A stretch of DNA of 64,000 nucleotides from Bacteroidota bacterium. Lineage in GTDB: Bacteria > Bacteroidota > Ignavibacteria > UBA10030 > CAVZMI01. Both the position numbers and the translations under genes were made by a program. The stretch is from NCBI GenBank assembly GCA_050011775.1, contig JBEKIL010000004.1:99825-163824 (forward strand). Direction: 5' to 3'. Positions 13,974 to 43,904 of the stretch are shown one piece after another; position 1 is the stretch's first letter; every line of letters starts with the position of its first letter. Under the pieces are notes generated by a model that had not been told where the DNA came from, searched no databases, and saw only the letters and a list, made by a program, of their open reading frames with translations.

Positions 13974-13981
13974 TGAAGGGC

Positions 13982-15593: not shown

Positions 15594-15693
15594 ACCATAA
15601 AAGTGCAATGAATTAAATCGTTGAGACAAAGTACGCTGTTAAGCGAGTTATGTGCTATTGCCCTTCAACCACACTTCGAAAGGATTAAATATC

Positions 15694-18600
15694 ATGCGTG
15701 TACTTCGTTTGATCATGTTTCTATCTTTCATGTTGCTTCTTCAGAGAGAGGCAATTCACGCTCAATGGCAGCAAACAAACGGTCCCTATGGTGGCACCAT
15801 TAGTTGTTTTGCCGTCTCAGGCACGAATCTTTTTGCCGGTACTTATTTCGGCGGCGTCTTTCTTTCTACTGACAACGGTACAAGCTGGAGTGCGGTGAAT
15901 ACCGGTTTGCCGATCATTCGTGTCAATGCTCTTGCTGTTTCCGGCACGAATCTCTTTGCCGGGACTCCAAGCGGCGTCTATCTTTCCACCAACAACGGCA
16001 CAAGCTGGACTGCGGTTAATAACGGCTTGACGTACACTTCTGTCAATGCTCTTGCCGTCTCCGGCACGAATCTCTTTGCCGGGATTTTGGGCGGCGGCGT
16101 CTTTCTTTCCACAAACAACGGCACAAACTGGAGTGCGGTCAATACCGGCTTGACGAATACTAATGTCCAGGCCTTTGCGGTCAGCGGTACGAATCTCTTT
16201 GCCGGGACTAATGGCGGCGGCGTCTTTCTTTCCACCGATAGCGGCACAAGCTGGAAAGCCACAAGCACAGGCTTGCCGTGGAAGACTTCTTATGTCGAGG
16301 CCTTTGCGATCAGCGGTACGAATCTCTTTGCCGGGACTTATGGCGGCGTCTTGCTTTCTACCAACAACGGCACAAGCTGGACTTCAGTCAATATCGGCTT
16401 GACAAATACTTATGTTCATACTCTTGCCGTCTCCGGCACGAATCTCTTTGCCGGAACTGATAGCGGCGTCTTTGTTTCCACCAACAACGGCACAAGCTGG
16501 ACTGCGGTTAATAACGGCTTGACGTACACTTCTGTCAATGCTCTTGCTGTTTCCGGCACGAATCTCTTTGCCGGGACTCCAAGCGGCGTCTTTCTTTCCA
16601 CCAACAACGGCACAAACTGGACTGCGGTTAATTCCGGCTTAACAGGCGCTTATGTCAGTGCCTTTACGGTCATCGGTACGAAACTCTTTGCCGGGACTTC
16701 TGACGGCGTCTTTCTTTCCACGGATAGCGGCACAAGCTGGAGTCCAGTCAATACCGGCTTGACGAGCATTTATGTCCGGGCCCTAGCGGTCATCGGTACG
16801 AATCTCTTTGCCGGGACTAATGCCGGCGTCTTTCTTTCTACCAACAACGGCACAAGCTGGAGTCCAGTCAATAACGGTTTGACGAACGCTTATGTCATCG
16901 CTTTCGCCGTCTTAGGAACGAATCTCTTTGCCGGGGATTATGGCGTCGGCGTCTTTCTTTCCACCGATAGCGGCGCAAGCTGGAGTCCAGTCAACACCGG
17001 CTTGACGAACATTTATGTCCAGGCCTTAGCGGTCATCGGTACAAATCTCTATGCCGGTACCTGGGGCGGCGGCGTCTTCCTTTCCACCAACAACGGCGCA
17101 AGCTGGAGTCCAGTCAATACCGGATTGACGAATGGTAGTGTCGAGGTTCTCGCCGTCTCTCCCGACTCATCGGGAAATCTCTTTGCCGGGACTTATGGCA
17201 GCGGCGTCTTTCTTTCTACCGATAGCGGCACAAGCTGGAGTGCAGCTAATACCGGAATTAAGTACGAAATTGTCAATACTCTTGCCGTCTCCGGTAATAA
17301 TCTCTTTGCCGGGACTTCAAGCGGCGTCTTTCTTTCCACAAACAACAGCACAAGCTGGACTGCGATCAATAACGGCATGGGGACCAGTAGTGTCACTGCT
17401 CTTGCCGCCTCCGGCACGAATCTCTTTGCCGGGGCTTATGGCGGCGGCATATGGAGGAGACCGTTGTCGGAATTTGTCTCTACTCCTCCAACTATTTCAT
17501 CCTTTTCACCAACCTATGGTCCAATCGGCACAACCGTTACTATTACTGGTACTCACTTTAATCAAACCCCAAGCAACGATATTGTCTATTTCGGAGCCAC
17601 AAAAGCGGCTGTCAATTCAGCATCTGCAACATCGCTGATGGTAACGGTGCCAAGCGGTGCAACGTATGCACCGATTACTGTAACCGATTTAGCGACCGGC
17701 TTCACGGTATATTCCTCGAAGCAATTTAATGTCACGTTCCCCGGTGGCGGTTCTATTACAAGTTCATCATTTGCCGATAAGATTGATGATACTACAGGAA
17801 TCTATCCTCATGGTATAACAATTTCCGATATAGATGTAGACGGAAAGCCGGATGTAGTTGTGGTAAATTGGGTTAGTAATACTCTGTCTGTCTTGCGCAA
17901 TACAAGCATAAGTGGAGTAGTGGCATTTGCGACCAAGGTAGATTATGCAACAGAAATCTTTCCTAGTAGCTTAGCTATTGCCGATATCGATGGAGATGGA
18001 AAATCGGATGTAGTAGTAACAAATTATAATAGTAATACAATATCGGTCTTTCGCAACACGAGTACGATGGGGAGTGTATCATTTGCAAGTAAGGTTAATT
18101 ATGCAACCGGAAGCTATCCTATAGGTATAGCTATCGCCGATATCGATGGAAATGGAAAGCCGGATGTAGTTGTAACAAATGGTGAAGATAGTACCATCTC
18201 TGTTTTTCGCAACACGAGTACGATGGGGAGTATATCATTTGCAAGCAGGGTCAATTATAAAACAGGAAGCCGGCCTGTTGATGTGGCTATTACAGATATC
18301 GATGGAGATGAAAAGCCAGATATAGCAGTAATAAATGAATTTGATAATACTCTCTCTATCTTTCTCAACACGAGCACAAGCGGAAGTATATCACTGGCAA
18401 GTAAGGTTGATTATACAACAGGAAGTGATCCCCTTGGTATAGCGATTGGTGATATTGATGGAGATGGAAAACATGATGTAGTTGTGACAAATTTTGGTAG
18501 TAATACCATTTCTGTCTTTCGCAACACGAGCACAAGCGGGAGTGTATCACTGGCAAGCAAGATAGATTATACAGCGGGAAATGCTCCTTATGGTATAGCT

Positions 18601-19146
18601 ACTACCGATATCGATGGAGATGGTAAGCCGGATATAGTTGTGACAAATTTTGGTGGTAATACCGTATCTGTCCTTCGTAACACCAGCACAAGCGGGAGTG
18701 TATCATTGGCTAGTAAAGTTGATTATACAACAGGAAACAGTCCAATTGATATAGCTATCACCGATATCAACGGAGATGGTAAACCTGATCTTGTAACTGC
18801 AAATTATGGTAGTAATATTATTTCTCTGCTTCGAAATACGGTGGGTACTGTTGGCGTAGAAAGTGATGGCCAGACTCTTCCGACACATTTCTCTCTGATG
18901 CAGAATTACCCCAATCCATTCAACCCGACCACAACGATCAATTATCAGCTTCCATCGCGGAGCCACGTGACGCTGAAGGTGTTCGACATACTGGGCCGGG
19001 ATGTGGCGACGCTCGTGGCTGAGGAGAAAGCGCCGGGTAGGTATACAGCGACGTGGAATGCGGCGGACTTAGCAGGTGGGGTGTACTTCTACAAGATGAG
19101 CGCCGGCTCATTCAGTGAGACCAAAAAACTTATTTTACTGAGATAA
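15694..19146 (+). CDS. T9SS-secreted repeat protein: BNR/beta-propeller repeats, IPT/TIG, FG-GAP/VCBS repeats, T9SS C-terminal domain
   Basis: Signal peptide MRVLRLIMF..AIHAQ; about 14 ~41-aa repeats NLFAGT..GVFLSTNNGTSW; about 7 DIDGDGKPDVVVTN repeats; C-terminal NYPNPFNPTT..KKLILLR. Start placed at ATG 15694. Confidence 0.88.
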   Translation: MRVLRLIMFLSFMLLLQREAIHAQWQQTNGPYGGTISCFAVSGTNLFAGTYFGGVFLSTDNGTSWSAVNTGLPIIRVNALAVSGTNLFAGTPSGVYLSTNNGTSWTAVNNGLTYTSVNALAVSGTNLFAGILGGGVFLSTNNGTNWSAVNTGLTNTNVQAFAVSGTNLFAGTNGGGVFLSTDSGTSWKATSTGLPWKTSYVEAFAISGTNLFAGTYGGVLLSTNNGTSWTSVNIGLTNTYVHTLAVSGTNLFAGTDSGVFVSTNNGTSWTAVNNGLTYTSVNALAVSGTNLFAGTPSGVFLSTNNGTNWTAVNSGLTGAYVSAFTVIGTKLFAGTSDGVFLSTDSGTSWSPVNTGLTSIYVRALAVIGTNLFAGTNAGVFLSTNNGTSWSPVNNGLTNAYVIAFAVLGTNLFAGDYGVGVFLSTDSGASWSPVNTGLTNIYVQALAVIGTNLYAGTWGGGVFLSTNNGASWSPVNTGLTNGSVEVLAVSPDSSGNLFAGTYGSGVFLSTDSGTSWSAANTGIKYEIVNTLAVSGNNLFAGTSSGVFLSTNNSTSWTAINNGMGTSSVTALAASGTNLFAGAYGGGIWRRPLSEFVSTPPTISSFSPTYGPIGTTVTITGTHFNQTPSNDIVYFGATKAAVNSASATSLMVTVPSGATYAPITVTDLATGFTVYSSKQFNVTFPGGGSITSSSFADKIDDTTGIYPHGITISDIDVDGKPDVVVVNWVSNTLSVLRNTSISGVVAFATKVDYATEIFPSSLAIADIDGDGKSDVVVTNYNSNTISVFRNTSTMGSVSFASKVNYATGSYPIGIAIADIDGNGKPDVVVTNGEDSTISVFRNTSTMGSISFASRVNYKTGSRPVDVAITDIDGDEKPDIAVINEFDNTLSIFLNTSTSGSISLASKVDYTTGSDPLGIAIGDIDGDGKHDVVVTNFGSNTISVFRNTSTSGSVSLASKIDYTAGNAPYGIATTDIDGDGKPDIVVTNFGGNTVSVLRNTSTSGSVSLASKVDYTTGNSPIDIAITDINGDGKPDLVTANYGSNIISLLRNTVGTVGVESDGQTLPTHFSLMQNYPNPFNPTTTINYQLPSRSHVTLKVFDILGRDVATLVAEEKAPGRYTATWNAADLAGGVYFYKMSAGSFSETKKLILLR

Positions 19147-19255
19147 CGGGCCCGTAGACGGGACTGCGCCGGCGACCTGTCCGCCGGAGTGAAACGAAGG
19201 CGGAAGCGAAACGCAGGCGAAAATCCCGCAAGTTGGGACGCAGGTGAGCAACTGC

Positions 19256-19355
19256 ACACAAAAGCGGGCACTATGACATGAAGAACATTCAACCCCACCC
19301 GTCAATTAATAAAGTATAGTCGGGCGGGATTGCGTAGTGCCCGCATATGTTACTT
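19256..19355 (+). other. Degenerate attC-like site
   Basis: GCGGGCACTATG (19264) pairs with CGTAGTGCCCGC (19333), followed by ATAT-GTTACTT. Same family as the site at 40230; the left core is decayed (ACACAAA). Confidence 0.65.
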
Positions 19356-19779
19356 AAAATGTTTAAGGAAAAGAGAGCCATAAAAAGCGATACCAAAAAT
19401 AAATATTCAAACAAAATTATGAATGTATGCAAATTGGAATGAAATCAGTGCTGTCCAAAATAGATTATTATAAGTTGATAATCACTTCAAATATGTTGCT
19501 TAAGGTATAAGTATTTCGATTTATAAATTGGAGCCATAGAACAAAAATGGCCATTTCCATAATAATTAATTCCTTGATGACAAAATCGCTGGCGTGTAGC
19601 GGGAAGAAGGGAGGCCGTGTGTTGGCGCAATTTCGTGTGTTTCGATCGAGACTTATAAAAGCTATCGACTGAATATTCCTTAGATTAAAGGCCGAGATCG
19701 ACGGACTCGAATGTGCCATCACAACAGCGCGTGCTGGAGGCCATCTCACGTGGGTTGCGATTTTGTCAGGCTTTCTTTC

Positions 19780-19809
19780 TGTCCCTTTCTTTCCAGAAAG
19801 AAAGGGACA
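19780..19809. terminator. Perfect 13-bp hairpin, possible bidirectional terminator
   Basis: TGTCCCTTTCTTT-CCAG-AAAGAAAGGGACA. Confidence 0.5.
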
Positions 19810-19841
19810 AAATACTATAGCTCTTTCTGCAATTTATTTTG

Positions 19842-19956
19842 GACAAGTCTGGAATGAAATAATTTATAAGAAGAATTTTCACAGGAAAAGAAGATTGTAA
19901 AAAACATACCAAATTTGCCGACCACCGGACCTTGCATTTTCTCCAGTACTTCCTTA
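19842..19956. repeat. 115-bp dispersed repeat, copy 1 (copy 2 at 25933-26047)
   Basis: Ungapped hand alignment gives 96/115 identical. Confidence 0.85.
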
Positions 19957-19979
19957 CGTCGTGGTTTTTTAATAAGAGC

Positions 19980-20107
19980 ATACCTGCAACAATCACAGGC
20001 ATTCATTCGTAACTGTAATATATAAAGATATTGCGGTTACGATCGAATTCATTTAATAGCAATGAAGTAAATCGCCGAGATAAAGTGCATTGTTATGCAA
20101 GTTAGGC
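19980..20107 (+). other. Degenerate attC-like site
   Basis: Right end GAGATAAAGTGCATTGTTATGCAA-GTTAGGC resembles GAGACAAAGTACGCTGTTAAGCGA-GTTATGT at 15623-15653. Inner hairpin CGTAACTGTAAT/ATTGCGGTTACG. Left core not clear. Confidence 0.5.
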
Positions 20108-20291
20108 GCCAGTAGCTTCTCACCCAGATTCATCACAAAAGGAGCTTATATGCATTTTTCAAGGATAGGTTTACAGACGAAACATTTTATCTCTACGAGA
20201 ACAATCGTCAGTATAATTTCGGTCCTTACAACAAGTTAACTATGCCTGCTCCCGGCATTTTGCAGTTCATCGATTATGAAATCTGACAGGG

Positions 20292-21509: not shown

Positions 21510-21633
21510 AATGAATATGTGTGTACTCAGATATAAATTAATATTACACGGCAATTTTACGGTGACATTTTATATTTCATATATTTATAATTTTATGCCA
21601 AAATATATTTAATCATTAATTAAAATAATTACC

Positions 21634-23076: not shown

Positions 23077-23118
23077 AAACCTTAATTGAATCATTTAGTA
23101 AAATTAAAATCAAGTATT

Positions 23119-25565: not shown

Positions 25566-25692
25566 TTCGAGTTATTTTGATGACCTATAAATACTTGCGG
25601 ACGATTTATTGCCTGAAAGATATTTGTTCCGACATCTTCAAGCTGAAGATGTCGAAGAAGCATATTCAATAATATGTTATGCATCGTTCCAT

Positions 25693-25953
25693 ATGCGTAG
25701 AAAAGATAGAGAAATATCAAAACAAGAAACAATGGCTGTATTACAGAAGGCCGAATATGGCATACTGTCAATAGCATCTCTTGATGGTATACCATATGGG
25801 ATTCCTCTGAATTATTGTGTCATGAATGATACAATATATTTTCATTGTGCAGTACATGGCAGAAAATTAGATATTTTAGCCCAAAACGGCTCCGTTTCCT
25901 TTTGCGTCGTAGGTGATACTGAAGTCTTACCAGATAAGTTTGGGATGAAATAA
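25693..25953 (+). pseudogene. Truncated pyridoxamine 5'-phosphate oxidase / NimA-like flavin-binding protein
   Basis: MRRKDREI..PYGIPLNY..IYFHCA..GRKLDIL..VSFCVV, then a stop after PDKFGMK at 86 aa where the 115-bp repeat begins. The usual (Y)xSVIVFG half is absent. Confidence 0.7.
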
Positions 25954-26047
25954 TTTATAAGAAGAATTTCGACAGGAAGAGTAGGTTGTAAAAAGCACAC
26001 TAAATTTACCAGCCATCGAAACTTGCATCTTCCCCAGTACTTCCTTA
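25933..26047. repeat. 115-bp dispersed repeat, copy 2
   Basis: 96/115 identical to 19842-19956. Confidence 0.85.
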
Positions 26048-26094
26048 AGTTCCTACATATTACGAACAATGCTGAAAGAAAGGAGTAATAAAAA

Positions 26095-30263: not shown

Positions 30264-31952
30264 ATGTTTAATCGAACTCGGCTTTTATTAACTTGCGGAT
30301 TGTTTATTACTGCAGTTATGTTTCCAGCGGCGTTTGTACAGGCCCAAACCGACACCATTCGGGTGGTATGTGTCGGTAATAGCATCACCGAAGGATATAC
30401 TACAGTTAATCCCGCAACTGACGGCTATCCTGCACAGCTTGGAGTATTGCTCGGAAGCGGGTGGAACGTGAAAAATTCCGGAGTATCCGGACGCACAATG
30501 CTTAAAAACGGCGACTTCCCGATCTGGAATGAACAGAAGTTTAAGGACGGACTCGCCTTCAATCCCGATATCGTAACTATCTGCCTCGGGACAAACGACA
30601 CTAAACCATGGAACTGGGATGATCATAAAGGTGAATTCATCGGCGACTATAACGCGATGATCGATACGTTCAGGTCACTCCCAAGTCATCCGGTGGTGTG
30701 GCTCTGTCTTCCTCCTCCATCCTTCAGCGATGCATTCAGTATCCGGGATTCGGTGATAAACGCTGACATCATTCCTATGATCCAACAAATTGCTGCCAAC
30801 AAAGAATGCCAGATTATCGACTTTAACACTCTGCTGAAAAGTCGCTCCGACGTCGTCCCAGACGGAATTCATCCTAACGGTGCCGGATCGGCGGTGATGG
30901 CTAAATTACTCTATGAAAAACTCACCGGCAATACGATCATAACTGTAAATGACGAGAATTGTGCGGCAGGAAAAACCGTAAGCGTAAGCGGATCGATCGA
31001 TTCGCTCGTGTACGGCGGAGCGAATCTTGTGGACGGCAAAAGTACAACGCAATGGATTACCCTTGGATTCCCCGCAGAGGCGACCATCGATCTCGGCTCG
31101 ACTCAGATCATAGATTTATTCAGGGTCGATTTCACCGGTACGCGGGAAGCGAATGCGGGTTATCAATTTCGCATCGAAATTCCGTCAGTAACAGGCGGAT
31201 GGATAACGGCACTCGATCGCACAACAAGAACCGACTCGGCGGCCACAATACTTGAAAAGACAGATTCTATCTCAGCGCGATTCATACGTCTCACAGTCAC
31301 AGGCGCCGCCCGGCCCAGAGGCGATACAGTAAGCATAGCCGAAATCCGCGTACTGAAAGCAAACGGAGGGGCACACTCACCTGTAATTTCATTCAAAAAG
31401 ACAGGTGCCTCGGGTTCGAATATAAAATATGACATCAAATTCCAGTGGCCAAACGGCGCCGTAGGAAAAGTAATTCCGTATCGTCATAAAAATGTGGGGG
31501 GACTCGATGCCGTCAGAGGTTTCATGGATGGAAGTACGTACACAATAACCAGTGAATACATCAAAACGGTAAATTACAATGTCTATTACGCCGAGACATT
31601 TCTTAATGGAATTGAGGTAATCTCGGATACAACGGTAATCGGTGCCCTTCCGACTGGAATCAAAGAAATAGAATCGCCCGAAATGCCGTCGGAAATCCAG
31701 CTCCTGCCGTCCTATCCTAATCCATTTAATCCATCGACTACAATTTCATTTATTCTTCCATCAAAATCATTTATTACGCTTAAGATTTTTGATGCACTAG
31801 GAAGAGAAATTACGACACTATTTTCGGGACAGCTGCAGGCAGGATTTCATTCACGGCAATGGAATGCGGTAAACATGCCGAGCGGTGTTTATTTTTATCG
31901 CCTCCAGGCTGGTGAATTTGCTCAAACGAGAAAGTTAATCTTGATGAAATAA
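30264..31952 (+). CDS. T9SS-secreted SGNH/GDSL esterase with a discoidin (F5/8)-like domain
   Basis: CVGNSIT, GVSG, LGTND, DGIHPN, NLVDGKSTTQW, C-terminal YPNPFNPST. Start placed at ATG 30264 after AAGGA. Confidence 0.85.
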   Translation: MFNRTRLLLTCGLFITAVMFPAAFVQAQTDTIRVVCVGNSITEGYTTVNPATDGYPAQLGVLLGSGWNVKNSGVSGRTMLKNGDFPIWNEQKFKDGLAFNPDIVTICLGTNDTKPWNWDDHKGEFIGDYNAMIDTFRSLPSHPVVWLCLPPPSFSDAFSIRDSVINADIIPMIQQIAANKECQIIDFNTLLKSRSDVVPDGIHPNGAGSAVMAKLLYEKLTGNTIITVNDENCAAGKTVSVSGSIDSLVYGGANLVDGKSTTQWITLGFPAEATIDLGSTQIIDLFRVDFTGTREANAGYQFRIEIPSVTGGWITALDRTTRTDSAATILEKTDSISARFIRLTVTGAARPRGDTVSIAEIRVLKANGGAHSPVISFKKTGASGSNIKYDIKFQWPNGAVGKVIPYRHKNVGGLDAVRGFMDGSTYTITSEYIKTVNYNVYYAETFLNGIEVISDTTVIGALPTGIKEIESPEMPSEIQLLPSYPNPFNPSTTISFILPSKSFITLKIFDALGREITTLFSGQLQAGFHSRQWNAVNMPSGVYFYRLQAGEFAQTRKLILMK

Positions 31953-32887: not shown

Positions 32888-33137
32888 TTCTTTTTGATCT
32901 TTGGAGACCGTCTTTTTATCGCAGTGTATCCAATTGCAAGAAGAGCATTTACATAGATAGAATCCAGATTACCATCAAATACGATGCAGGTGCACATCAG
33001 ATAATAGCAGAAAAAATATAAAATGAATTATTCCGTTGCTCATCCCGCACTGAAAGTACGGGACAACGGTACGGCATTTTTGCTGCACACGTCAGTTGGT
33101 ATTATCCTTTTAAATATAAATGAAAGGAGACATTACT

Positions 33138-35219
33138 ATGCGTGCCAATTCTCACTTTTTATTTCTCATTGGATTTTTCGTACTCGGTCAGGCCACTTTG
33201 AAGGCGCAGTGGAGTCAGACGAACGGACCAACAGGCGGTTGCATTAATGCACTCACGACACTTGGGTCTACGATTATTGCTGGAACGGAAGCAGGAGCAT
33301 TCCGATCCACCGATAATGGCGCGCACTGGACAGCGGCAAACACGGGACTTACTAATTACGAAATTCTCGCCCTCACATCGGGTGAGCGCATCTTCATGGG
33401 AACAGGTTCCGATTTGGTATCATCGACAGATCAGGGAGTGACTTGGTCATCATCTCTTATGAACGATTATGTTCTTTCTATTGCCACAAACGGTACATAT
33501 CTCCTTGTCGGAACATACAGCGGTGTTTCACTCTCAACCGATAATGGTACAAACTGGACGCAGGTGAACAACGGATTGACGAATACTACCGTTCAGGCGC
33601 TCGCCATCGTTGGATCTACGTTTTTTGCCGGAACCGGAAACGGATTATTCCTCTCGACAGATCAAGGTGCAAGTTGGCATGCTCCTACAACAGGCCCGAC
33701 AAATTCGAATATCAGATGCTTTACAGTAAAAGACACGAATGTATATGCAGGTACATGGGGCGGCGGTGTGTTTGTCACATCAGACACCGGTGCACATTGG
33801 TCTGAGACGAACAACGGATTTTCTTCGTCAGAGATCGTGATGTCCTTGTACACCTTTGGTACGGTGCTCTGTGTCGGGACAGGAAACGACGGTCCATACG
33901 TCTCGACTGATGATGGTGCGCATTGGAATTCTACGGCATCGCTGCCGGGGGGTGAAGTGCATGCGTTCACCTCGAATAACACAACACTCTTTACAGGGAC
34001 ACGCAGTTCTTTGTACGCCTCCACCGATACAGGAAAGCACTGGACAGAAGCATGTGACGGTATGATTGCTGCATACTGTTCTGCACTAGGGGGTTCTGGT
34101 TCGACTATCTATGCTGCTTCTGGTACTAACGGTGTGTATCTTTCCACAAATGAAGGAACAAGCTGGACAGCATCGAACAATGGATTAGATATCCCTATCG
34201 CGTATACAATTGCCGTAGACGGATCGTTTATTTATCTTGGCGACAACGGCGGAGCTCATCGTTCAACGGATGGCGGTGCAAATTGGTTAACAGCTAATAC
34301 AGGTTTCGTGAATTACAATCCTGTTAATGCATTTTTTGTAGATGGTACAAATCTGTACTCTGGCGGAGATGATGGAGTATATCTATCTACTGATCATGCC
34401 GCAAACTGGACACCGGCAAAAACCGGATTACCTCAAGAGAATCCCCACAATATAATCTATGCACTCGGCAAAATTGGCTCTAAACTCATTGCAGCAACGT
34501 ATGATTCCGGCTTCTTTGTATCGACGAACAATGCAGCTAATTGGGCACCATCCAGTACAGGCCTTCCGCTACCTGCGAGGGGGAAAAAATTCGTGACAGT
34601 CGGAACAAAAATCTATGCGGGATTGCAGAATAATAGAGGTGTATATGTTTCGGCAGATAGCTGCAACAGCTGGACAGCTATCAATGAAGGATTAACGGAT
34701 TTGGACATAAATGCATTGGCAAGTGACGGAACAAATCTGTTTGCCGGCACACTTAATTGTGTATCCATTTTGATGCATGGAAGTACGAGTTGGATACCTA
34801 TGGCAACAGGGCTTCCTGTGGTGGGGTCGAATGAAATAGATGCGTTGCTTGTTAATGGTGATTACCTTTATGCCGCAGTCGGGAGCTCAGGCGTCTGGCG
34901 GCGTCTCTTATCAGAGATGACGGATGTGAAAAATTACACCGCTCAGAATCAGCCTGATGTATTTACCCTAAAGCAAAACTATCCAAATCCGTTCAATCCA
35001 ACCACAACAATTTCCTTTAGTCTTCCGACACCATCCAAGGTGTCTTTGAAAGTATTTGATTTGTTAGGAAGAGAGGTTGCAATAATTGTTTCCGAAGTAC
35101 TATCGGCTGGTGATCACTCTCGGCAATGGAATGCATCAGGTTTTGCGAGTGGTATTTATTATTACAGATTAGAGGCTGGAATTTTTGTTGAAACAAAGAA
35201 ACTTGTTTTACTTCGATGA
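33138..35219 (+). CDS. T9SS-secreted BNR/beta-propeller repeat protein
   Basis: Signal peptide ..LKAQWSQTNGP, S-T-D-x-G-x-x-W Asp-box repeats, C-terminal NYPNPFNPTT..KKLVLLR; RBS AAGGAG. Confidence 0.88.
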   Translation: MRANSHFLFLIGFFVLGQATLKAQWSQTNGPTGGCINALTTLGSTIIAGTEAGAFRSTDNGAHWTAANTGLTNYEILALTSGERIFMGTGSDLVSSTDQGVTWSSSLMNDYVLSIATNGTYLLVGTYSGVSLSTDNGTNWTQVNNGLTNTTVQALAIVGSTFFAGTGNGLFLSTDQGASWHAPTTGPTNSNIRCFTVKDTNVYAGTWGGGVFVTSDTGAHWSETNNGFSSSEIVMSLYTFGTVLCVGTGNDGPYVSTDDGAHWNSTASLPGGEVHAFTSNNTTLFTGTRSSLYASTDTGKHWTEACDGMIAAYCSALGGSGSTIYAASGTNGVYLSTNEGTSWTASNNGLDIPIAYTIAVDGSFIYLGDNGGAHRSTDGGANWLTANTGFVNYNPVNAFFVDGTNLYSGGDDGVYLSTDHAANWTPAKTGLPQENPHNIIYALGKIGSKLIAATYDSGFFVSTNNAANWAPSSTGLPLPARGKKFVTVGTKIYAGLQNNRGVYVSADSCNSWTAINEGLTDLDINALASDGTNLFAGTLNCVSILMHGSTSWIPMATGLPVVGSNEIDALLVNGDYLYAAVGSSGVWRRLLSEMTDVKNYTAQNQPDVFTLKQNYPNPFNPTTTISFSLPTPSKVSLKVFDLLGREVAIIVSEVLSAGDHSRQWNASGFASGIYYYRLEAGIFVETKKLVLLR

Positions 35220-35299
35220 ACGGGCCTGCACGCCGACCTGTTCGCCGAAATGGAGTGCAGGCGGAAGGGCCGCGTTCTAGCCCGCAGGCGGGCAACTGT

Positions 35300-35416
35300 A
35301 CATAACGGCGAAACAGTACTTTAGTACAACGGACACTGCAACACTTTGTCCAATCCTGCAGTCATTTTTAAAAGTTTTGTTCTGCGGACTCGACGTAATG
35401 CCCATGGACGTTGAGT
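35300..35416 (+). other. attC-like site with intact cores and poorly paired inner arms
   Basis: Left core ACATAAC (35300-35306), right core GTTGAGT (35410-35416). The interior shares AGTACTTTAGT(A/G)CAAC with the 15517 region. Confidence 0.5.
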
Positions 35417-36303: not shown

Positions 36304-36460
36304 GCCACGACCTTCAGGTCGTGGATTTTTAAATCCAAAAAATCTTTGCGGGCTTTAGCCCTACATCAATCTAATGTGGGGTTAAAACCCCTCATTTTTC
36401 TCCTCTTATTTCCCACGAGCTACTCGCCTCGCTCCGCTTCAGCGGAGCAGGAAGCTCGTG
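36304..36460. repeat. Cluster of REP-like palindromes
   Basis: CCACGACC-TTCA-GGTCGTGG (36304), GGGCTTTAGCCC (36350), GGGGTTAAAACCCC (36378), CACGAGCT..CTCGCCTCGCTCCGCTTCAGCGGAGCAGG..AGCTCGTG (36414-36460). Confidence 0.7.
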
Positions 36461-36770
36461 GCAATTCAGAAAATACAGATTGTTTTAGACCACTGGCTCA
36501 AGTGTGTCCATAGAAAATATATAAACAGAGTTTTTCAGACGTCTCAAATCGTCAATCCCGAAGGGTCGTAGACATAAATCATCAATATCAATGGCCATTT
36601 CATACTTTGGTTTGCATTTCCCCTCGTAATTTCTTACGTTCTAACAGAAATTACACATACTTCCTTCAGTCGATACTAGAGGGGCTTCGATTACGAAATT
36701 GTCTGTCCCACGTTTACTTGCACGGCACGGATAAGTCGAAGACCATTAAAGCATACAGAGGCTGACAGGT

Positions 36771-36846
36771 ACATCCAAAAGAAATAAATACGCTATACCA
36801 CGAAGTGGTACTGTTCCACCGTATAGCGTCTTTACAGATGTTATAC
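36771..36846 (+). other. Degenerate attC-like site
   Basis: AAATACGCTATAC pairs with GTATAGCGTCTTT (12/13), outer ACATC/GATGT, right core GTTATAC at 36840. Confidence 0.55.
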
Positions 36847-36878
36847 GCCATGTGCCCGTCATATTTACAGAGGATCGA

Positions 36879-37364
36879 ATGGAATGGATATCCGGAATTA
36901 TTAGCATCGGAAATAAACTTTTTCCGTGGATTGGGAAAATATGGAACAAACGCCGCTTTGGTCCTCGAATTCAACTAGACCTGAGCTGGGATCATCCACA
37001 AATCTACATTGCCGGTGAACCTATTAGAACATGGCGAACCCTTTTGATCCAGGCAATAGGCGCAAAAGAAAGTGAGTATGAGATAGCATCGGGTTATTTA
37101 GAAGCACGAGAATTCAACACGAAAAAATTTATCCTAATTACAGATTTATCAAACTTGATTCTACTACCACTACACCTAGATGCTAATCGACAAAAAGATT
37201 TTGAAATAGATGGAACAACGGTGACAAAGCATCTTCGTCGTATTTTTAAGGAAAATACTCCAATAGAAATTCGTGTGAATGTTCAGGATTATTACGGCAC
37301 ACGAATAATCAGCAAACCATTTCAAGTTACTATAACTGAATTGGAGCGCAAGGAAACTCGATGA
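36879..37364 (+). CDS. Hypothetical protein (161 aa), sole ORF of a complete cassette
   Basis: RBS AGAGG before ATG 36879; bounded by attC-like sites; no recognisable motif. Confidence 0.7.
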   Translation: MEWISGIISIGNKLFPWIGKIWNKRRFGPRIQLDLSWDHPQIYIAGEPIRTWRTLLIQAIGAKESEYEIASGYLEAREFNTKKFILITDLSNLILLPLHLDANRQKDFEIDGTTVTKHLRRIFKENTPIEIRVNVQDYYGTRIISKPFQVTITELERKETR

Positions 37365-37419
37365 GAAGTCCCTGTCTAATAATAGACTATATAATTGAAT
37401 ATTATACGGGCACACGGGC

Positions 37420-37585
37420 GTATAACAAGCGTGCCCACGACGGTCGCACATTTGCTAAAGCTTTTGTAAATTCGATTTGAGAATAGATAATAGTGCTCCC
37501 TCAATACCATGCCGGAGCTTAGAGTATAAATAATTCATTCGCAAGTTACCGGCATGGTACTGCGTGGGCACGCCAGACGTTATGT
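37420..37585 (+). other. attC recombination site (166 bp)
   Basis: GTATAAC-AA-GCGTGCCCACG ... CGTGGGCACGC-CAGAC-GTTATGT: perfect 11-bp inner arms plus complementary ATAAC/GTTAT cores. Confidence 0.8.
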
Positions 37586-37612
37586 GAAATTGTGCCCCTC
37601 AAGGAAAATACA

Positions 37613-40216
37613 ATGGATAAAAAATTTTTATTCAAACTTTCGAGTACACCAACAACGACTTACTCCGATGCCGAAGTATTATTCCGAGACCTAAAAAACC
37701 GTGATCCGAAAATTCAACATCTTTGGTCCCACCAAGCTGATATTCTGAGGGAATATCATAGGAGCATTGATCAAATTGACATCGCACTCGAATTACCTAC
37801 AGGTGCCGGCAAAACACTAGTCGGCTTGCTTATTGCTGAGTGGCGCAGACTTTCCCTCAATCAACGGGTTGCCTACCTTTGCCCTACTCGCCAGCTTGCA
37901 TACCAAGTTGGCCAAAAAGCTACTGAATATGGAATAAAGGCACATGTCTTGGTCGGATCACAATCTCTATATCCCGCAGGTCAATTTGCAGAATATGCGT
38001 CAGCGAAAGCCATTGCTGTGACTACTTATTCGGGTTTTTTCAACACGAATCCAAGAATCGATCGGCCTGAGACTGTCGTGTTCGATGATGCCCATGCTGG
38101 TGAGAATTATATTGCTAAAATGTGGTCAATGAATATATCTCGTTTTGACAACAAGACTTTATTCGATCAGATCGTGGATCTGTTTTGCTCGGAACTACCC
38201 GATTACTCAATTAGTACTTTAAAAGATGATGATGCTAGACCATATCAGAGACAGTTGGTTGAAATGGTTCCAGTTCCAAGATTCCTTAAAAAATTACAAC
38301 CACTAACAGACCTTCTGGACGCCTCAACAGCAGATACCGAACTCGCTTACCCTTGGAGTTTGATAAGAAATAAGCTGGCAGCTTGTTGTGTTTTTTTCTC
38401 TTGGTCTGATATTCTAGTCCGGCCTTGGATACCTCCAACATTAACTCATCTTCCATTTGCCTCTTCGAAGCAAAGGATCTATATGTCTGCAACTATCGGT
38501 GCAGGCGGCGAGCTTGAGCGTATTATTGGAGTGCCTTCGATTCATAGAATTCCAGTTCCTCAAGGTTGGGATAAACAGAGCACTGGCAGGAGGTTGTTCA
38601 TTTTCCCGGATCATTCCTTCTCCTATACTGAGTACGATGATTGGTTGACGAGGACTTTGGATTCAAAGGAACGATCGCTAGTGCTCACACCGCATGGTTT
38701 ATCCTTGCGATCTTTTTTGGAAACAATGGCACAATTCGGCCTCACTCACCAGATACTTAAAGCACAAGACGTCGAAGAAACATTAGATCCCTTTATAAAT
38801 TCCTCAAACGTTCTTCTTGCTCTGACGAATCGCTATGATGGCATCGATTTGCCTGGTGATAGTTGTAGAATATTGGTTGTCTACGGATTACCCACGGCTG
38901 TGAATCTCCAAGAAAGATTCCTATGGACAAAACTCGGTCTTACCACTGTACTTAAAGATAGAATCAGAACCAGAATCACCCAAGCAGTCGGTCGATGTAC
39001 TCGCAACTCCACAGATTATGCAGTGGTGCTAATGATTGGAGAATCATTATTCGATTTCTGTGTAAAACACGAGAATAGGTCAGAACTTCACCCAGAACTA
39101 CGTGCAGAGATAGACTTTGGAATTGATAATTCTAGCCAATCTAACATAGGCGAATTGACTGCTTTGATTGAATTGTTCTTAAATCGCGACGCGTCTTGGA
39201 ATCAAGCAGAAGCAGACATTAGCAAGAGACGAGATGAGACGCTCCATCCCCCACCCGCCTATGTCGGAGTTCTACGGACAGTAGTCCATTACGAAGTAGA
39301 CTATCAATATGATCTGTGGAAAGAAGATTATTCTCAAGCTTTAGTGAAGGCGACTACTATTATTGACAATCTTTCTGGCGACGAGCTGGCCGGATATAGG
39401 GCTTTATGGAATTATTTTGCAGGATGCGCTTCATATCAACTTGGTCTTGTATCAGGAAAGAATGAAATGATACAAACCGCTGCAGACCGGTTCTTACGTG
39501 CATCACAGGCTGTCCGTACATTATCCTGGTTCGCCCGTTTAGCTCACGAATTCGGTGCAACACCGACCCGGCAATCTCAATCTCAATACCTTACAGTACT
39601 AGCGACTGAATTTATCAATTCCTATTTGATGAATTTGGGGACTGTTGGAAGACGCTTTGATAAAGTATTATCAGAGTTTGAATCTAAAATCCGAGTTACG
39701 GATTCTGATAGTTTTGATCAAGGATTAACCGAACTTGGTAAAATGTTAGGATTCGATGCCGAAAAACCCGAAGGCGTAGGAGTCCCTGATAGCGTTTGGC
39801 GTATTGGTGGAGAGTTCGTGCTTCTATTTGAATCAAAGAGTGATGAAAGCCCAGATGATAAGATATCCATCAGAACCTGTAGACAAGCGCAAGGCCATTT
39901 GAATTGGGAGCGATCCAGACCATTCTTTACCCAAAACGCCAAACTTCATTGTATTGTTGTCACTCCCCGTTCAGTGCTCGATAAGGCCGCTTTGCCACAT
40001 TCCGATAATCTCTATTATCTTTCATCGGACGCCATTAGAAAACTCTTCAGAGAAGCCGATGCTTGTTTACGACTGATTAGGAGTAAATCACCCGACCTGG
40101 AAAGCGAGCAACGGCTTGGGTTAATTCAAGCCGAACTTCTACAGGCACAATTGATACCTGAAGCAATTATTAAGCATTTAACTTCAACTCGGCTTGCTGA
40201 TATAACATGCAAATGA
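37613..40216 (+). CDS. SF2 (DinG/XPD-like) helicase with C-terminal PD-(D/E)xK nuclease, Hna-like candidate anti-phage protein
   Basis: Q motif LWSHQ, LPTGAGKT, YLCPTRQL, VFDDAH, MSAT, DGIDLP, QAVGRCTR; nuclease PD-x13-ESK. Start placed at ATG 37613 after AAGGA. Confidence 0.8.
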   Translation: MDKKFLFKLSSTPTTTYSDAEVLFRDLKNRDPKIQHLWSHQADILREYHRSIDQIDIALELPTGAGKTLVGLLIAEWRRLSLNQRVAYLCPTRQLAYQVGQKATEYGIKAHVLVGSQSLYPAGQFAEYASAKAIAVTTYSGFFNTNPRIDRPETVVFDDAHAGENYIAKMWSMNISRFDNKTLFDQIVDLFCSELPDYSISTLKDDDARPYQRQLVEMVPVPRFLKKLQPLTDLLDASTADTELAYPWSLIRNKLAACCVFFSWSDILVRPWIPPTLTHLPFASSKQRIYMSATIGAGGELERIIGVPSIHRIPVPQGWDKQSTGRRLFIFPDHSFSYTEYDDWLTRTLDSKERSLVLTPHGLSLRSFLETMAQFGLTHQILKAQDVEETLDPFINSSNVLLALTNRYDGIDLPGDSCRILVVYGLPTAVNLQERFLWTKLGLTTVLKDRIRTRITQAVGRCTRNSTDYAVVLMIGESLFDFCVKHENRSELHPELRAEIDFGIDNSSQSNIGELTALIELFLNRDASWNQAEADISKRRDETLHPPPAYVGVLRTVVHYEVDYQYDLWKEDYSQALVKATTIIDNLSGDELAGYRALWNYFAGCASYQLGLVSGKNEMIQTAADRFLRASQAVRTLSWFARLAHEFGATPTRQSQSQYLTVLATEFINSYLMNLGTVGRRFDKVLSEFESKIRVTDSDSFDQGLTELGKMLGFDAEKPEGVGVPDSVWRIGGEFVLLFESKSDESPDDKISIRTCRQAQGHLNWERSRPFFTQNAKLHCIVVTPRSVLDKAALPHSDNLYYLSSDAIRKLFREADACLRLIRSKSPDLESEQRLGLIQAELLQAQLIPEAIIKHLTSTRLADITCK

Positions 40217-40229
40217 GGGGCACAACTTC

Positions 40230-40341
40230 ATATAACAGCGGGCACCACGACACTTCATTCAAGCCCGCCACGGTGCAGTTATTAAATGGGTCGTTCGCCA
40301 TATCCCGTGTCGGGCTTGCGTGGTGCCCGCACACGTTATGC
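40230..40341 (+). other. attC recombination site (112 bp)
   Basis: ATATAAC-A-GCGGGCACCACG ... CAAGCCCG ... CGGGCTTG-CGTGGTGCCCGC-ACAC-GTTATGC: perfect 12-bp and 8-bp arms. Confidence 0.85.
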
Positions 40342-40428
40342 GCCACGCGGCTTGTTGTCTAGTCGACTAAATTCGTCATGCCTAAAAATGGCGGGAATCT
40401 TGCCCCCAGAAATAAAAGGAGGAAAACC

Positions 40429-41376
40429 ATGAAGAGCTACATGAAGCTCGGAATTCTTGCGCTCGCACTTGCGTGCTCAGTGCGAGCTCAATCGGTGCAA
40501 GGATCAGCAGAGGGAAAGCAAGCAGTGGAAGTACTCCCCCGGGCCACAGTCACCGTGCTGGTGGACAACATGGTAGGTCGCGGAGATGTGCTCGGCGAAT
40601 GGGGTGCCGCATTTCTGATCAACACAGACCAGCACCAGATTCTCTTCGATACTGGTGGGGGACAAGTCCTCATCGGAAATTCCCGAGCCCTTGGTGTGGA
40701 TCTCGCCAAAACTGAAGCCATTGTCATCAGCCATGGGCATCCGGATCACACAGGGGGACTCGATGCTGCTTTGAATGTCTGCAAGTCTGTGGATTTATTT
40801 GTTCACCCAGCCGTTTTCGAGACTAGATATTATAAGGGAGATTCAGGCGCGGTGGCTTATAGCTTCGTTTTCACCAGACAACAACTGCTTCAACGAGTTC
40901 GCAATCTGGTTGAGACGAAGGGACCGACTCTCATTTCTGAACGAGTAATGGTCACGGGCCAGGTTCCCCGACTAAACGATTTTGAAGATACCGGTTTGCG
41001 CGGGTACGTTTTCCTTGACAGCAGTTTGACAATAGAAGATCCAATTCCGGATGATCAAGCCGTGTTCTTCCGCGTTCCAGAGGGAGTCGTTATATTGCTC
41101 GGATGCGGCCACGCCGGGCTGGTCAATACAATGGAGTATGTATGCAAGCTAACGGGTGAGCAGCACATCTACGCGGTCATTGGCGGCACTCATTTGCTTA
41201 ATGCTTCTCCCTCGCGTATGCTAAAGACTATCGAAGCGCTGCGGATGTACGACGTACAGAAGATCATGCTGTCGCATTGTACCGGCCTTCGCGCATACGC
41301 ACAGCTGGCAAATGCTTTTCCAGGTCGATGCAGCTGGCCGGCTAGTGGAACCACAATCAAGTTCGGTTCTCAGTAA
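40429..41376 (+). CDS. MBL-fold metallo-hydrolase (COG1237-like) with a signal peptide
   Basis: VLVDN, GEWG, ILFDTG, SHGHPDHTGG, GCGHAG, GGTHL, HCTG. Start placed at ATG 40429 after GGAGG. Confidence 0.85.
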   Translation: MKSYMKLGILALALACSVRAQSVQGSAEGKQAVEVLPRATVTVLVDNMVGRGDVLGEWGAAFLINTDQHQILFDTGGGQVLIGNSRALGVDLAKTEAIVISHGHPDHTGGLDAALNVCKSVDLFVHPAVFETRYYKGDSGAVAYSFVFTRQQLLQRVRNLVETKGPTLISERVMVTGQVPRLNDFEDTGLRGYVFLDSSLTIEDPIPDDQAVFFRVPEGVVILLGCGHAGLVNTMEYVCKLTGEQHIYAVIGGTHLLNASPSRMLKTIEALRMYDVQKIMLSHCTGLRAYAQLANAFPGRCSWPASGTTIKFGSQ

Positions 41377-41479
41377 TCTGTGATGTGAAATGCTGGAAGA
41401 TATGATGCAACAGTGAAGTGGTTCACTACACGGCGGGCAGGCGCTTCCGCCAAAAGATTCCGCCAGACCCTAAAGGGCC

Positions 41480-41759
41480 GTAAATCCCACTGGAAAGTGT
41501 GGGACGAGAAAAACCGGAACACGGAAACGGCGGACGCACATCCCACTGAATAGAGTGGGACGAAAGAGATCGAAACGCGACAGCATGGCGGACCCGCTCC
41601 GCCTCGAGATGCTCGGCAGAGCGAGGCGAGCAGACGCACGCTGGATAGGCGATGTTGAAGCAAAGGTTGGCTAAATATAAAGTGCTCGATTGCTCGCCGC
41701 CACGAAATCGAGTAAGTCGTAGTGGCGGCTCGCAACGGCAGTTTGCCTAAACGTTAAGT
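41480..41759 (+). repeat. REP-rich structured spacer ending in an attC right core
   Basis: Two TCCCACT..GTGGGACG hairpins, REP CCCGCTCCGC..GCAGAGCGAGGCGAG (41593-41630), GCCGCCAC/GTGGCGGC, TAGGC/GCCTA, right core GTTAAGT at 41753. Confidence 0.6.
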
Positions 41760-41803
41760 GCAACGCGTATCCGTATAGAACAATTTCCAAAAAATTAAAA
41801 CTA

Positions 41804-43615
41804 GTGGAGCAATCCTTGAAAAATATCCTCCTCGTCATAAGTTTCTTTTCAATTTTTTCTATACACGTATTGTACGCTGGACGGGAATCGGAGTATAGTG
41901 ATAGGTATCCAAAGTTCACCGAAATTATTAAACACGATTCTAGTCTCTATTTTGCCGGGAGCTGGACAAATCGATACATTGTTGTCGAAAGAGAAAGAAA
42001 TGGAACATGGCATACTTATAGCTGTCAGGGAGATAAATATTATCTTGCGGCAACAAGTATTTTTAGTGTTACGGATGGATTACTTTTCATGTGTGGTAAC
42101 GGAGGCTATAAAAAGTTTCTCTTTCAGACAAAGAAGTGGGAAACAACGACCTACGAAATAATAAGACCTTTCTATAAATCTCAATATTCAAATCAACAAA
42201 ATGAAATAAGAAAAATACAAAGCCCTGATAATCTAGAACAATTTGAATTTCCACTTCCATCATATAATACACTCTGCCGCTGGCGATTTTTCCCAAACTC
42301 CCTCAATCATATAAATGCTTCAATAGGCCCAAATATTACGAGACATAACACGATATGGTTTACAATAAATTTCTATGATGGAGAAGGATCAACGGGGATT
42401 GGCGGACTTGGACTATTTGATCTCGATAAAAGAATATTTGGCGTAATAAGGGATAAATTTCTCGCATCTTGTTCAGGAGGATTACTCACTAACCGCGGAG
42501 ATACTATCATTATTGCCACAAATCAATCATGTGAATATGGTACGTATGGTGATAATGGTTTAGTATTAATCGATATAAAAAAAGGATTGTTGTCAAATAT
42601 TCCCTGTGCACAAAATACACTTAATGGCGATTATTTCTTAGCCATGAAAATTATTGATGATGTCCTCTGGATAACATCCGATAGATCCATCATCTCATGG
42701 TATTTCAATAGCAACTCGTGGAATTCTTACCGCATTGAATCGCTAGTCATAAATAATAATTGTAACGTGTATCGGAAACCGAAAAGATATTCCGATTTTA
42801 GTAACGGCGGACTGCCAAACCATATCGATTATGATAGCAGCATCGCTGTCTCTCGTTACATAAAAGGTGATACCGTTGTATGTGAATGGCCGGGGGATGA
42901 TTATGCAGAAATACAATGCAAAGAAAATATTTACGGGTGGATATCAAAAGATAAATATGCCTCTTTTTCAAAAAGGACAAAAGAAGAACGTGCAATAAGC
43001 TACCCCGACGAAATTCTCTACACCGATAGTACACTTAAGATACCATTCCATTCTTTCCGCTCATCCACAATATCCCTAGAGAGACAGAATGCTGACGCTG
43101 TTATGATAGCTGTAAATACTGGATGGATTCGCATGGATGACGTCGATCCAATCCTCTCAGAATCATCGCGAGGCAGCACTCCTCAATTACGGTGGCATAG
43201 TGTTCTTAATTCTGCAATTGATATAAAGCAAGAGGCGTTCTTGACGTTAGGGACAGAACAACAAGAGATACGATCGAAGATACCTATTCTCGATACCACA
43301 CTTACAATTTGTAACACAATGGATCTGTACAATAATTTCGAAAATATCATTGATGTGCGATGGTTACCATCGGGCAGTTTTGACAAGAATTCATGTCCAA
43401 AAGGGATAAAGTTAAATTACGATACGGAATTCTGGATTCGAAATAATAGAGTAGAATATAATGGCAAGTTAATATCAGTAGGTGATACTATTCATGCTGA
43501 AGCTGGAGATGCAGTCTACACCTATACAATTTTAGGCTATTCCATAAACGATTCAATAGAGAATTGTTTAAAAGAGTTAAAATTAAAATATACCGTTGTT
43601 ATGATACCTAAATGA
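41804..43615 (+). CDS. Hypothetical secreted protein (603 aa)
   Basis: Long AT-rich ORF with an N-terminal signal-like segment; no recognisable catalytic motif. Confidence 0.7.
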   Translation: MEQSLKNILLVISFFSIFSIHVLYAGRESEYSDRYPKFTEIIKHDSSLYFAGSWTNRYIVVERERNGTWHTYSCQGDKYYLAATSIFSVTDGLLFMCGNGGYKKFLFQTKKWETTTYEIIRPFYKSQYSNQQNEIRKIQSPDNLEQFEFPLPSYNTLCRWRFFPNSLNHINASIGPNITRHNTIWFTINFYDGEGSTGIGGLGLFDLDKRIFGVIRDKFLASCSGGLLTNRGDTIIIATNQSCEYGTYGDNGLVLIDIKKGLLSNIPCAQNTLNGDYFLAMKIIDDVLWITSDRSIISWYFNSNSWNSYRIESLVINNNCNVYRKPKRYSDFSNGGLPNHIDYDSSIAVSRYIKGDTVVCEWPGDDYAEIQCKENIYGWISKDKYASFSKRTKEERAISYPDEILYTDSTLKIPFHSFRSSTISLERQNADAVMIAVNTGWIRMDDVDPILSESSRGSTPQLRWHSVLNSAIDIKQEAFLTLGTEQQEIRSKIPILDTTLTICNTMDLYNNFENIIDVRWLPSGSFDKNSCPKGIKLNYDTEFWIRNNRVEYNGKLISVGDTIHAEAGDAVYTYTILGYSINDSIENCLKELKLKYTVVMIPK

Positions 43616-43674
43616 TAGGATGTCTCTTTAAATGTAACTAGTGATCATGGCAATTGTCATTTTAATCGAGCTGC

Positions 43675-43904
43675 GCATAACACGCATGGTTACGATGCCC
43701 GCCTTCGTCACGACCAATTCCGTCGTGACTCCGGCGGGTAAACTGACAGCTGGTTTCGACGGACTCAATACCGATAAAGTGCAGGTATTGAATGAGTCGT
43801 TTGCCGCGGCCTGGCCCGGGGTGAATCGGCAGGCTCATCACAGAATCGGTCGAGGGCGGGTAAGTTACGGGGTCGGGGCAGCATGGGCACGTCAGACATT
43901 ATCT
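43675..43904 (+). other. Degenerate terminal attC-like site
   Basis: Left core GCATAAC. Right end CATGGGCACGTCAGAC-ATTATCT resembles CGTGGGCACGCCAGAC-GTTATGT at 37563. Internal hairpin CCCGCC..GTCACGAC/GTCGTGAC..GGCGGG (43698-43738). Confidence 0.55.

Follow-up and report, generated by a model that had tools for sequence, protein, structure and literature searches.

Integrons are known, complete ones in Ignavibacteriae included (PMC9024848), and a cluster of attC sites lacking an integrase is termed a CALIN (Cury et al. 2016, PMC4889954; Néron et al. 2022, PMC9024848). IntI, the integron integrase, is defined by an additional, IntI-specific domain (Messier and Roy 2001, as cited in PMC9668308), and present integron practice demands this domain (Cury et al. 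2016, PMC4889954). Smyshlyaev et al. described the insertion as “not fully conserved” in an integron-like subgroup, yet essential for function (PMC8138268). Archaeal integrons have their attI site directly behind intI (Ghaly et al. 2022, PMC9668308). Here, we examined a 64,000-nucleotide stretch of contig JBEKIL010000004.1 (GenBank assembly GCA_050011775.1), referred to below as the window, in which an earlier note, made from the sequence alone, had proposed an integron-like cassette array without a neighboring integrase between radA (13982-15337, − strand) and rsmI (44050-44769, − strand). Our results make it probable that the block from 15495 to 44024 is an integrase-less (CALIN-like) chromosomal cassette array belonging to an integron-like system of Ignavibacteriales. 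The proposal thus held as far as the array is concerned; a canonical integron it is not, since the system departs from the canonical integron definition in both enzyme and site.

Sites and circularly permuted cassettes

Two sites on the + strand, S1 (core 37420-37585, outer 5' arm 37406-37419) and S2 (core 40230-40341, outer 5' arm from 40214), had been picked out in the earlier note as well-formed attC folds, and the arms and cores quoted there are indeed present. Using a covariance model (R2) trained solely on integrase-adjacent sites from three other Ignavibacteriales genomes (L004, L086, and L087), we obtained scores of 71.7 bits (E = 2.8e-15) for S1 and 66.3 bits (E = 5.8e-14) for S2; folded as single-stranded DNA and compared with shuffles, they gave z-scores of −4.4 and −4.5, respectively. 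A simple scanner for the core-spacer-arm...arm-spacer-core pattern placed only these two sites above chance in the window. A third site, S3 (19256-19355, + strand), has the arms of S2 together with degenerate cores and R boxes. It had been described as a degenerate homolog of S2, and the independently trained model agrees (39 bits, E = 2.5e-7; fold z = −4.8). S1, S2, and S3 are therefore members, by R2, of the integrase-linked site family of Ignavibacteriales, and these three strong sites form one family, which, with two attI-like junctions described below, takes the place of the at least three attC families suggested previously. R2 gave five matches in the window, all on the + strand; the remaining two are marginal, decayed sites at 41616-41759 (14.8 bits, E = 0.19) and 32999-33097 (12.8 bits, E = 0.6; 10.5 bits with model R1). 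Nothing comparable was found elsewhere in the window, and R2 had no match in 35 kb of flanking core DNA. S1 and S2 are 2.6 kb apart and have no integrase beside them, as in a CALIN (at least two sites within ~4 kb and no integrase), scored here with a family-specific rather than the canonical model.

Complementarity between the two ends of a cassette is a classical argument for integron cassettes, and it was found here for both cassettes that end in a well-formed site. Cassette A (36841-37579, + strand), which encodes a 161-amino-acid protein of unknown function, starts with GTTATACGCCATGTGCCCGT, the reverse complement of ACGGGCACACGGGCGTATAAC (37406-37426), which stands directly before the S1 arm. 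The start of cassette B (37580-40335, + strand), GTTATGTGAAATTGTGCCCCTCA (G/TT at 37579/37580), is likewise the reverse complement of 40214-40236, directly before S2. The complementary ends span ~20 nt in each cassette and score 33 (cassette A) and 36 (cassette B), compared to no more than 27 for every other GTT/AAC pair in the window. The right core that had been proposed at 36840 is thus, by its permutation signature, a real cassette start: a short hairpin ending in GTTATAC (36786-36846, + strand) places G/TT at 36840/36841, where cassette A begins. Such ends would be expected of a former circle that had been opened inside the GTT of the palindrome it carries. When the cassette ends were joined as in a circle, they folded at −47.5 to −51.6 kcal/mol, whereas the identical sites in their array context folded at −34.6 to −38.7 kcal/mol, a gain of 12 to 14 kcal/mol. 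For cassette A, the values were −51 kcal/mol when joined and −37 to −39 kcal/mol in the array.

The same signature was present in 20 of the 20 cassettes tested. In these cassettes, the starting R' agreed with R'' of the same cassette at 3.6 of 4 variable positions, compared to 2.5 of 4 for R' and R'' within one site, and the next 18 nt paired with the cassette's own end with a score of 8.1, versus 2.1 ± 1.5 for controls. Repeated cassettes point to the same boundaries. The L086 array carries one 321-bp cassette without an open reading frame (ORF) at four separate places (10982-14342), and L004 carries a tandem duplicate of an ORF-less 466-bp cassette; all of these copies are cut exactly at GTT. 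They diverge only past GTTA. Because GTTA is invariant, the exact crossover phosphate cannot be placed; its position is consistent with G^TT. Judged from these sequences, the cassettes appear to be circularly permuted with a G^TT crossover, as in canonical integrons.

Pairing within the sites is preserved while their sequence changes. When 18 sites were aligned (MAFFT), RNAalifold predicted 30 pairs, 23 of which showed compensatory changes; 91.9% of the cells were paired, compared to 66.9% after shuffling and 29 to 46% when the partners were slid. The 12-bp L stem was paired in 96.8% of cells and had no bulge. G-T combinations were almost absent among the paired cells, as expected for a DNA palindrome and not for an RNA. 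In a set of 32 sites, the R boxes read RYYTAAC and GTTARRY, with TAAC and GTTA nearly invariant, so that they conform to the canonical RYYYAAC/GTTRRRY cores; the base after R'' is A in 31 of 32 sites and the base before R' is C in 27 of 32. In 30 of the 32, the spacers of the 5' and 3' arms measure 1 and 4 nt or 2 and 5 nt, so that the one on the 3' arm is 3 nt longer. L-box extrahelical bases and a symmetric unpaired central spacer, both features of canonical attC sites, were not found. The sites are 100 to 166 nt long and form an imperfect palindrome at the cassette 3' end, with a branched inner part. The R helix comprises 10 bp and is flanked by conserved A/C appositions: cassette ends have the form GNC-A-T... 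opposite ...A-C-GNC, the second conserved apposition lying four nt outside the R box. Complementarity extends 13 to 16 nt past the R box, giving a helix of ~20 to 25 bp around the crossover in the circle form, compared to an R helix of only 7 to 10 bp in the array form. Both strands of the sites fold, and where the top strand has an A/C apposition the bottom strand would have a G-T pair, which is only suggestive of bottom-strand use.

From these features, we propose a mechanism for the system. A cassette would begin with TTRRRY and end with the G of the following GTT, with an imperfect palindrome at its 3' end, and a recombinase would act on the folded single strand, crossing over at G^TT. Cassettes would be excised as circles and inserted at an attI-like duplex site just after the recombinase gene. 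In the circle, the R helix would gain ~13 to 16 bp and so become a full-length binding arm; the active recombinase monomer may bind the R box and this extension together as its complete arm. What the extrahelical bases and the I2 element do in canonical integrons would here fall to the asymmetric spacer and the A/C positions.

The linked recombinase and the attI-like junctions

The window contains no tyrosine recombinase, either as an ORF (Pfam) or as a remnant (tblastn with six integrases), in agreement with the earlier note, which had seen no integrase in the array. A recombinase gene does occupy the same locus in a sister species. In L003, whose RadA is 94% identical to that of the window, a gene for a 304-amino-acid tyrosine recombinase lies directly beside radA and divergent from it; the gene therefore points in the direction of the window's cassettes, into the array. 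The L003 contig stops 24 nt past the recombinase stop codon. The best NCBIfam match of this protein is the integron integrase TIGR02249 (247.5 bits, under the cutoff of 265, and in two pieces), and it scores above the cutoff of NF040815 (XerA/integron integrase). Its closest solved structure is VchIntIA/IntI4 (PDB 2a3v; E = 1.8e-47), to which it aligns in two blocks (residues 10-182 and 205-283 versus 5-177 and 240-318), so that IntI4 residues 178-239 correspond to just 22 residues of the L003 protein. In an alignment with a Vibrio IntIA, the L003 enzyme has three deletions, together ~41 residues, precisely where the IntI-specific domain would be. The recombinases of the relatives keep all of the catalytic residues (R, K, H-R-H, and Y). 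Thousands of proteins belong to this family; most come from Ignavibacteria/Bacteroidota metagenomes, and many are encoded on very short contigs. Longer family members were considered as carriers of the IntI insertion and were ruled out, as their extra residues are N-terminal or lie elsewhere.

Four further loci (L004, L086, L087, and L092), all on long contigs, encode recombinases 63 to 74% identical to the L003 enzyme. Directly downstream of each lies an array of small genes in the same orientation, most of them unannotated, with sites of the S1/S2 type between them. We consider this recombinase the probable enzyme of the system, and in the genome of the window it would be either encoded elsewhere or lost. 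The IntI-like recombinase carrying the I2 insertion that the earlier note had proposed searching for is not what is linked to the sites in the relatives. In L092, an insertion directly after the array integrase (11056-13077) encodes an IS91-family transposase and a small tyrosine recombinase belonging to it. Short-read contigs repeatedly break at array edges or right after the integrase gene (L001, L090, L003, and L091); such breaks fit the many integrase contigs of 1 to 3 kb and indicate that these arrays are under-assembled in metagenome bins.

These data bear on the simplest alternative, namely, that the block is an ordinary CALIN with standard attC sites served by a canonical IntI, additional domain included, that is encoded elsewhere in the genome. 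The R cores do fit RYYYAAC/GTTRRRY, the cassette boundaries are integron-like, and IntegronFinder 2.0 has reported complete integrons in Ignavibacteriae (PMC9024848). Set against this, the recombinase found next to the site family in four arrays has no IntI insertion, and the L stem has no extrahelical bases, with a spacer of 1x4 or 2x5 instead of a symmetric one. R2, moreover, found no match in a 1-Mb control made up of 80 loci of more distant recombinases, which included true IntI loci (these control loci were recombinase relatives at most 52% identical among the matches listed in a profile search of genome contigs with the integrase alignment). We therefore regard an ordinary CALIN as unlikely.

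The recombinase gene in L004 is followed, right after its stop codon, by an element (10917-10942, GCAATGCATTGTTACGCTA-G/TTATAC) that has homologs in the window. Junction 1 (15628-15653, + strand) reads AAAGTACGCTGTTAAGCGA-G/TTATGT, and the first cassette begins at 15648; junction 2 (20082-20107, + strand) has its G/TT at 20101/20102. The shared core is TGTTAYGC-NA-G/TTRRRY. L002 has two copies of this element, and in L086 the first cassette begins at a point comparable to the L004 element. In appearance, the element is a duplex made up of an L'-like box, 2 nt, and an R box. Positions 15647 and 20101, which had been listed as right cores of attC sites, are accordingly better described as the array-entry junction cores of this attI-like element, as in L004.

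Taken together, these comparisons incline us, with less assurance than for the array itself, to the view that Ignavibacteriales, and possibly a wider Bacteroidota group, have a distinct, undescribed class of integron, of which the window carries an integrase-less array. The integrase of such a class would lack the “essential” IntI additional domain and would recognize folded DNA not by extrahelical L-box bases but by a spacer with a 3-nt asymmetry and by two conserved A/C appositions flanking a 10-bp R helix. Its binding arm would be completed only in the excised circle, and the cassettes it moves would reach 3 kb and hold several genes, those for secreted type IX secretion proteins and for defense among them. 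With an insertion-less IntI relative at the head of arrays whose structured, permuted cassettes number 4 to 13 or more, integron-type capture would be broader than current tools count, and both the definition of an integron and its detection are challenged. The system would also amount to a natural experiment in folded-DNA recognition, because the part of the enzyme that reads extrahelical bases and the bases themselves are absent together.

Strain variation and gene content of the block

Synteny with close strains ends at the edges of the block. L002, with a RadA that is 99% identical and DNA that is 92 to 96% identical, is collinear with the window up to 15494. Beyond this point it has other + strand genes, including those for a TPR protein, a Kelch/reprolysin type IX secretion protein, and a HEPN protein, and among these replacement genes are three model-positive sites of 36 to 43 bits. 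L094, with a 98% identical RsmI, stays collinear with the window over 44025-55016; inside the block it carries seven other small genes, including one for a Cass2/GyrI-like protein, and sites of 44, 61, and 86 bits. The flank DNA of the close strains is 92 to 97% identical. The two breakpoints together indicate that the whole block 15495-44024 is replaced in close relatives, which closely matches the coordinates given by the earlier note and answers its call for a comparison of gene order: content between radA and rsmI does differ. Close strains of an uncultured lineage thus differ by tens of kilobases at one locus, and the cassette system would explain this local genome variation; what varies is secreted-protein and defense genes.

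Replacement of a whole block between conserved flanks is also typical of a generic flexible island swapped by homologous recombination in the flanks, in which case the palindromes would be terminators or elements like repetitive extragenic palindromes (REP) or miniature inverted-repeat transposable elements (MITE), with no role in cassettes. The ~13 kb without a site (20.1-33.0 kb), as well as the small mobile element and the repeated D14 element within the block (both described below), would fit such an island. An island of this kind does not account for the permutation signature seen in every cassette tested, for dispersed and tandem cassette copies cut at GTT, or for a site family strictly linked to, and co-oriented with, one recombinase family. 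Unlike REP or MITE copies, moreover, the sites stand at the 3' ends of co-oriented genes within variable blocks, and core flanks and the 1-Mb control gave no R2 match. A generic island is thus very unlikely. A third alternative would confine the array to the last 7 kb (36.8-43.9 kb) and treat 15.6-36.8 kb as unrelated accessory DNA, and the well-formed sites and both permuted cassettes do lie within 36.8-40.3 kb. Against it, S3 (19256) clearly belongs to the family, L002 synteny ends exactly at the attI-like junction of 15647, and the first cassettes behind this junction in L002 likewise hold 3-kb genes with sites after them. We consider it the least probable of the alternatives.

The reading of the block as a CALIN-like array has several points against it. 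Only three strong sites occur in 28 kb, and none across the 13 kb at 20.1-33.0 kb; no recombinase is present in the window; and the two attI-like junctions inside or at the edge of an integrase-less array are of unexplained origin. Much of the array may now be immobile, given that S3, S4 (see below), and the sites at 32999 and 41616 are decayed. The sites were compared with canonical attC sites by architecture, and a canonical attC model may pick them up as ordinary attC. Finally, radA (L002) and rsmI (L094) are on different contigs that continue into other core genes, so the locus has been rearranged in that strain, and simple cassette shuffling is not the whole explanation.

The left flank of the block carries lon, a trxB-like gene, queG, metH, a TonB-dependent receptor gene, a Ham1-family gene, and radA, all on the − strand; radA, identified with Pfam, lies in a conserved flank syntenic with L002 and L003. 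The conserved right flank (rsmI, an aminotransferase gene, an aldehyde dehydrogenase gene, purB, and others) is also on the − strand, and synteny with L094 stops at 44025, just outside rsmI. From 15.6 to 44.0 kb, every substantial ORF is on the + strand, as the earlier note had stated. The same note had placed the genome in the Ignavibacteriota/Bacteroidota group, and homologs of RadA and RsmI carry the source names Ignavibacteriales or Bacteroidota. Searches of the window with Rfam at the gathering threshold and with a tRNA scan gave no match. The block encodes a 1,164-amino-acid BNR/FG-GAP protein and three further proteins with a type IX secretion C-terminal domain; three serine-hydrolase (beta-lactamase-fold) proteins, with scores far under any beta-lactamase cutoff; and an S41 peptidase, a PEMT-like protein, an 867-amino-acid helicase, a metallo-beta-lactamase-fold protein, and several proteins without a family.

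Cassette 1 (15648-19349, + strand), bounded by attI-like junction 1 and S3, contains the BNR/FG-GAP gene with its type IX secretion C-terminal domain (ORF 15652/15695-19146, Pfam). Cassettes of 3 kb that are delimited by sites occur here and also in L002 and L092, in keeping with the unusually large cassettes that had been noted. Between 20102 and 32998, inside the strain-variable block, nine + strand genes annotated with Pfam are arranged in tight operon-like groups, and neither R1 nor R2 detected a site: they encode three serine-hydrolase/PBP-like proteins, an S41 peptidase, a truncated PNPOx-like ORF, a 174-amino-acid protein, CotH and GDSL type IX secretion proteins, and a 215-amino-acid protein. 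These genes are only putative cassettes. That the full 28 kb is an integrase-less chromosomal array, as had been claimed, is thus inferred from strain variability and not from sites over these ~13 kb, whose genes would have arrived as cassettes as well.

Cassette B's DEAD/DinG-like helicase (37613-40216) is a full-length match (E = 3.9e-122) to the PADLOC candidate defense gene PDC-S28. Cassette C (40336-43897, + strand) encodes a metallo-beta-lactamase-fold hydrolase and a 599-amino-acid protein, has an internal decayed site at 41616-41759, and ends in the decayed terminal site S4 (43675-43903, + strand). The hydrolase has a weak precomputed match to Apyc1-like proteins. The internal site ends at the right core proposed at 41753, which is as far as that proposal stands, given its marginal score. 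For S4, described earlier as a degenerate copy at 43675-43904, the right end like that of S1 (37563-37585) was confirmed; its candidacy as a well-formed site was rejected, as it forms no single hairpin (z = −1.2) and has no R2 match. Its left core, GCGCATAAC at 43673-43681, is complementary to the start of cassette C, GTTATGCGC at 40335. The marginal, decayed attC-like site at 32999-33097 (+ strand) has the right architecture, AGATAAT-A-GCAGAAAAAAT...ATTTTTGCTGC-ACAC-GTCAGTT. A remnant left end of a site (..CTGTACATAAC, 35289-35307, + strand), read by eye, is homologous to the left end of S3 and has no right half; the right core suggested at 35410 found no support.

Four genes for type IX secretion proteins share 61 to 76% DNA identity in the C-terminal sorting domain (18901-19031, 29850-29980, 31707-31837, and 34974-35104), and two of them are also alike downstream as far as the left core of a site (19150-19255 versus 35222-35300). 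This sharing of the sorting domain and of downstream sequence at the DNA level suggests that the secreted-protein cassettes are paralogous.

Repeat D14 (TTGCAT..N..CCTTACGT) occurs in four + strand copies, at 15466-15493, 19842-19959, 25933-26050, and 36612-36639. It extends up to 118 nt at 83% identity, stands upstream of genes, and was seen in this lineage only. L002 synteny ends directly after the first copy, at 15494; the second, a D11/D14 element, is upstream of attI-like junction 2; and the copy at 25933 cuts off the PNPOx-like ORF (25609-25953). D14 may be a portable promoter. As a sigma-70 promoter it was rejected, since a sigma-70 scan did not call it. Between the first D14 element and attI-like junction 1 lies a tandem duplicate of a 30-nt hairpin unit (GTAGTCCCGCGAAGCGGGGC.ACGAA, 15541-15596). 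A small element with an ORF of ~93 to 104 amino acids lies inside the array at 19468-19830; L002 has a homologous copy (14689-14983) between the TonB receptor gene and metH, and window positions 10686-10712 are an inverted match of 19775-19801. It is probably a small mobile element. At 15360-15434 and 53654-53710 are tandem repeats of a purine-rich 18-nt unit (GGTAAAGGTAGAGGT-like); the first immediately precedes the start of radA and the second that of plsY, both − strand genes.

Comparison with described systems

The system resembles sedentary chromosomal integrons and CALINs in having co-oriented cassettes that each end in an imperfect palindrome with RYYYAAC/GTTRRRY cores, a crossover consistent with G^TT, complementary ends within each cassette, and conservation of pairing rather than of sequence; like them, it is strain variable and holds many cassettes of unknown function, with one candidate defense gene. 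It differs from them in its recombinase, which has no IntI additional domain, and in its sites, which lack L-box extrahelical bases and have an asymmetric 1x4 or 2x5 spacer, A/C appositions flanking a 10-bp R helix, complementarity for 13 to 16 nt past the R box, and a branched inner part. It differs also in the orientation of the integrase, which is that of the cassettes, and in the position of its attI-like site just after the integrase stop codon.

“Inverted integrase” integrons, such as that of Treponema denticola, likewise have an integrase oriented as the cassettes are. The present arrays are thus like inverted-integrase or archaeal integrons in the co-orientation of integrase and cassettes or in an attI directly downstream of intI, and unlike them in that those integrons keep the IntI-specific domain and have attC sites described as canonical. 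VchIntIA/IntI4 (2a3v) shares the conserved catalytic residues, whereas the I2 region, which contacts the extrahelical bases, is absent here. Full-text literature searches found no account of insertion-less IntI-like recombinases heading cassette arrays. With XerA, XerC, and XerD, the enzyme shares the format of a short, “simple” tyrosine recombinase of ~300 residues and a score above the NF040815 cutoff. The dif site, however, is a 28-bp duplex with two 11-bp arms and a 6- to 8-bp center, unlike the branched, covarying hairpins of 100 to 166 nt described here, and Xer genes do not have arrays of permuted cassettes behind them.

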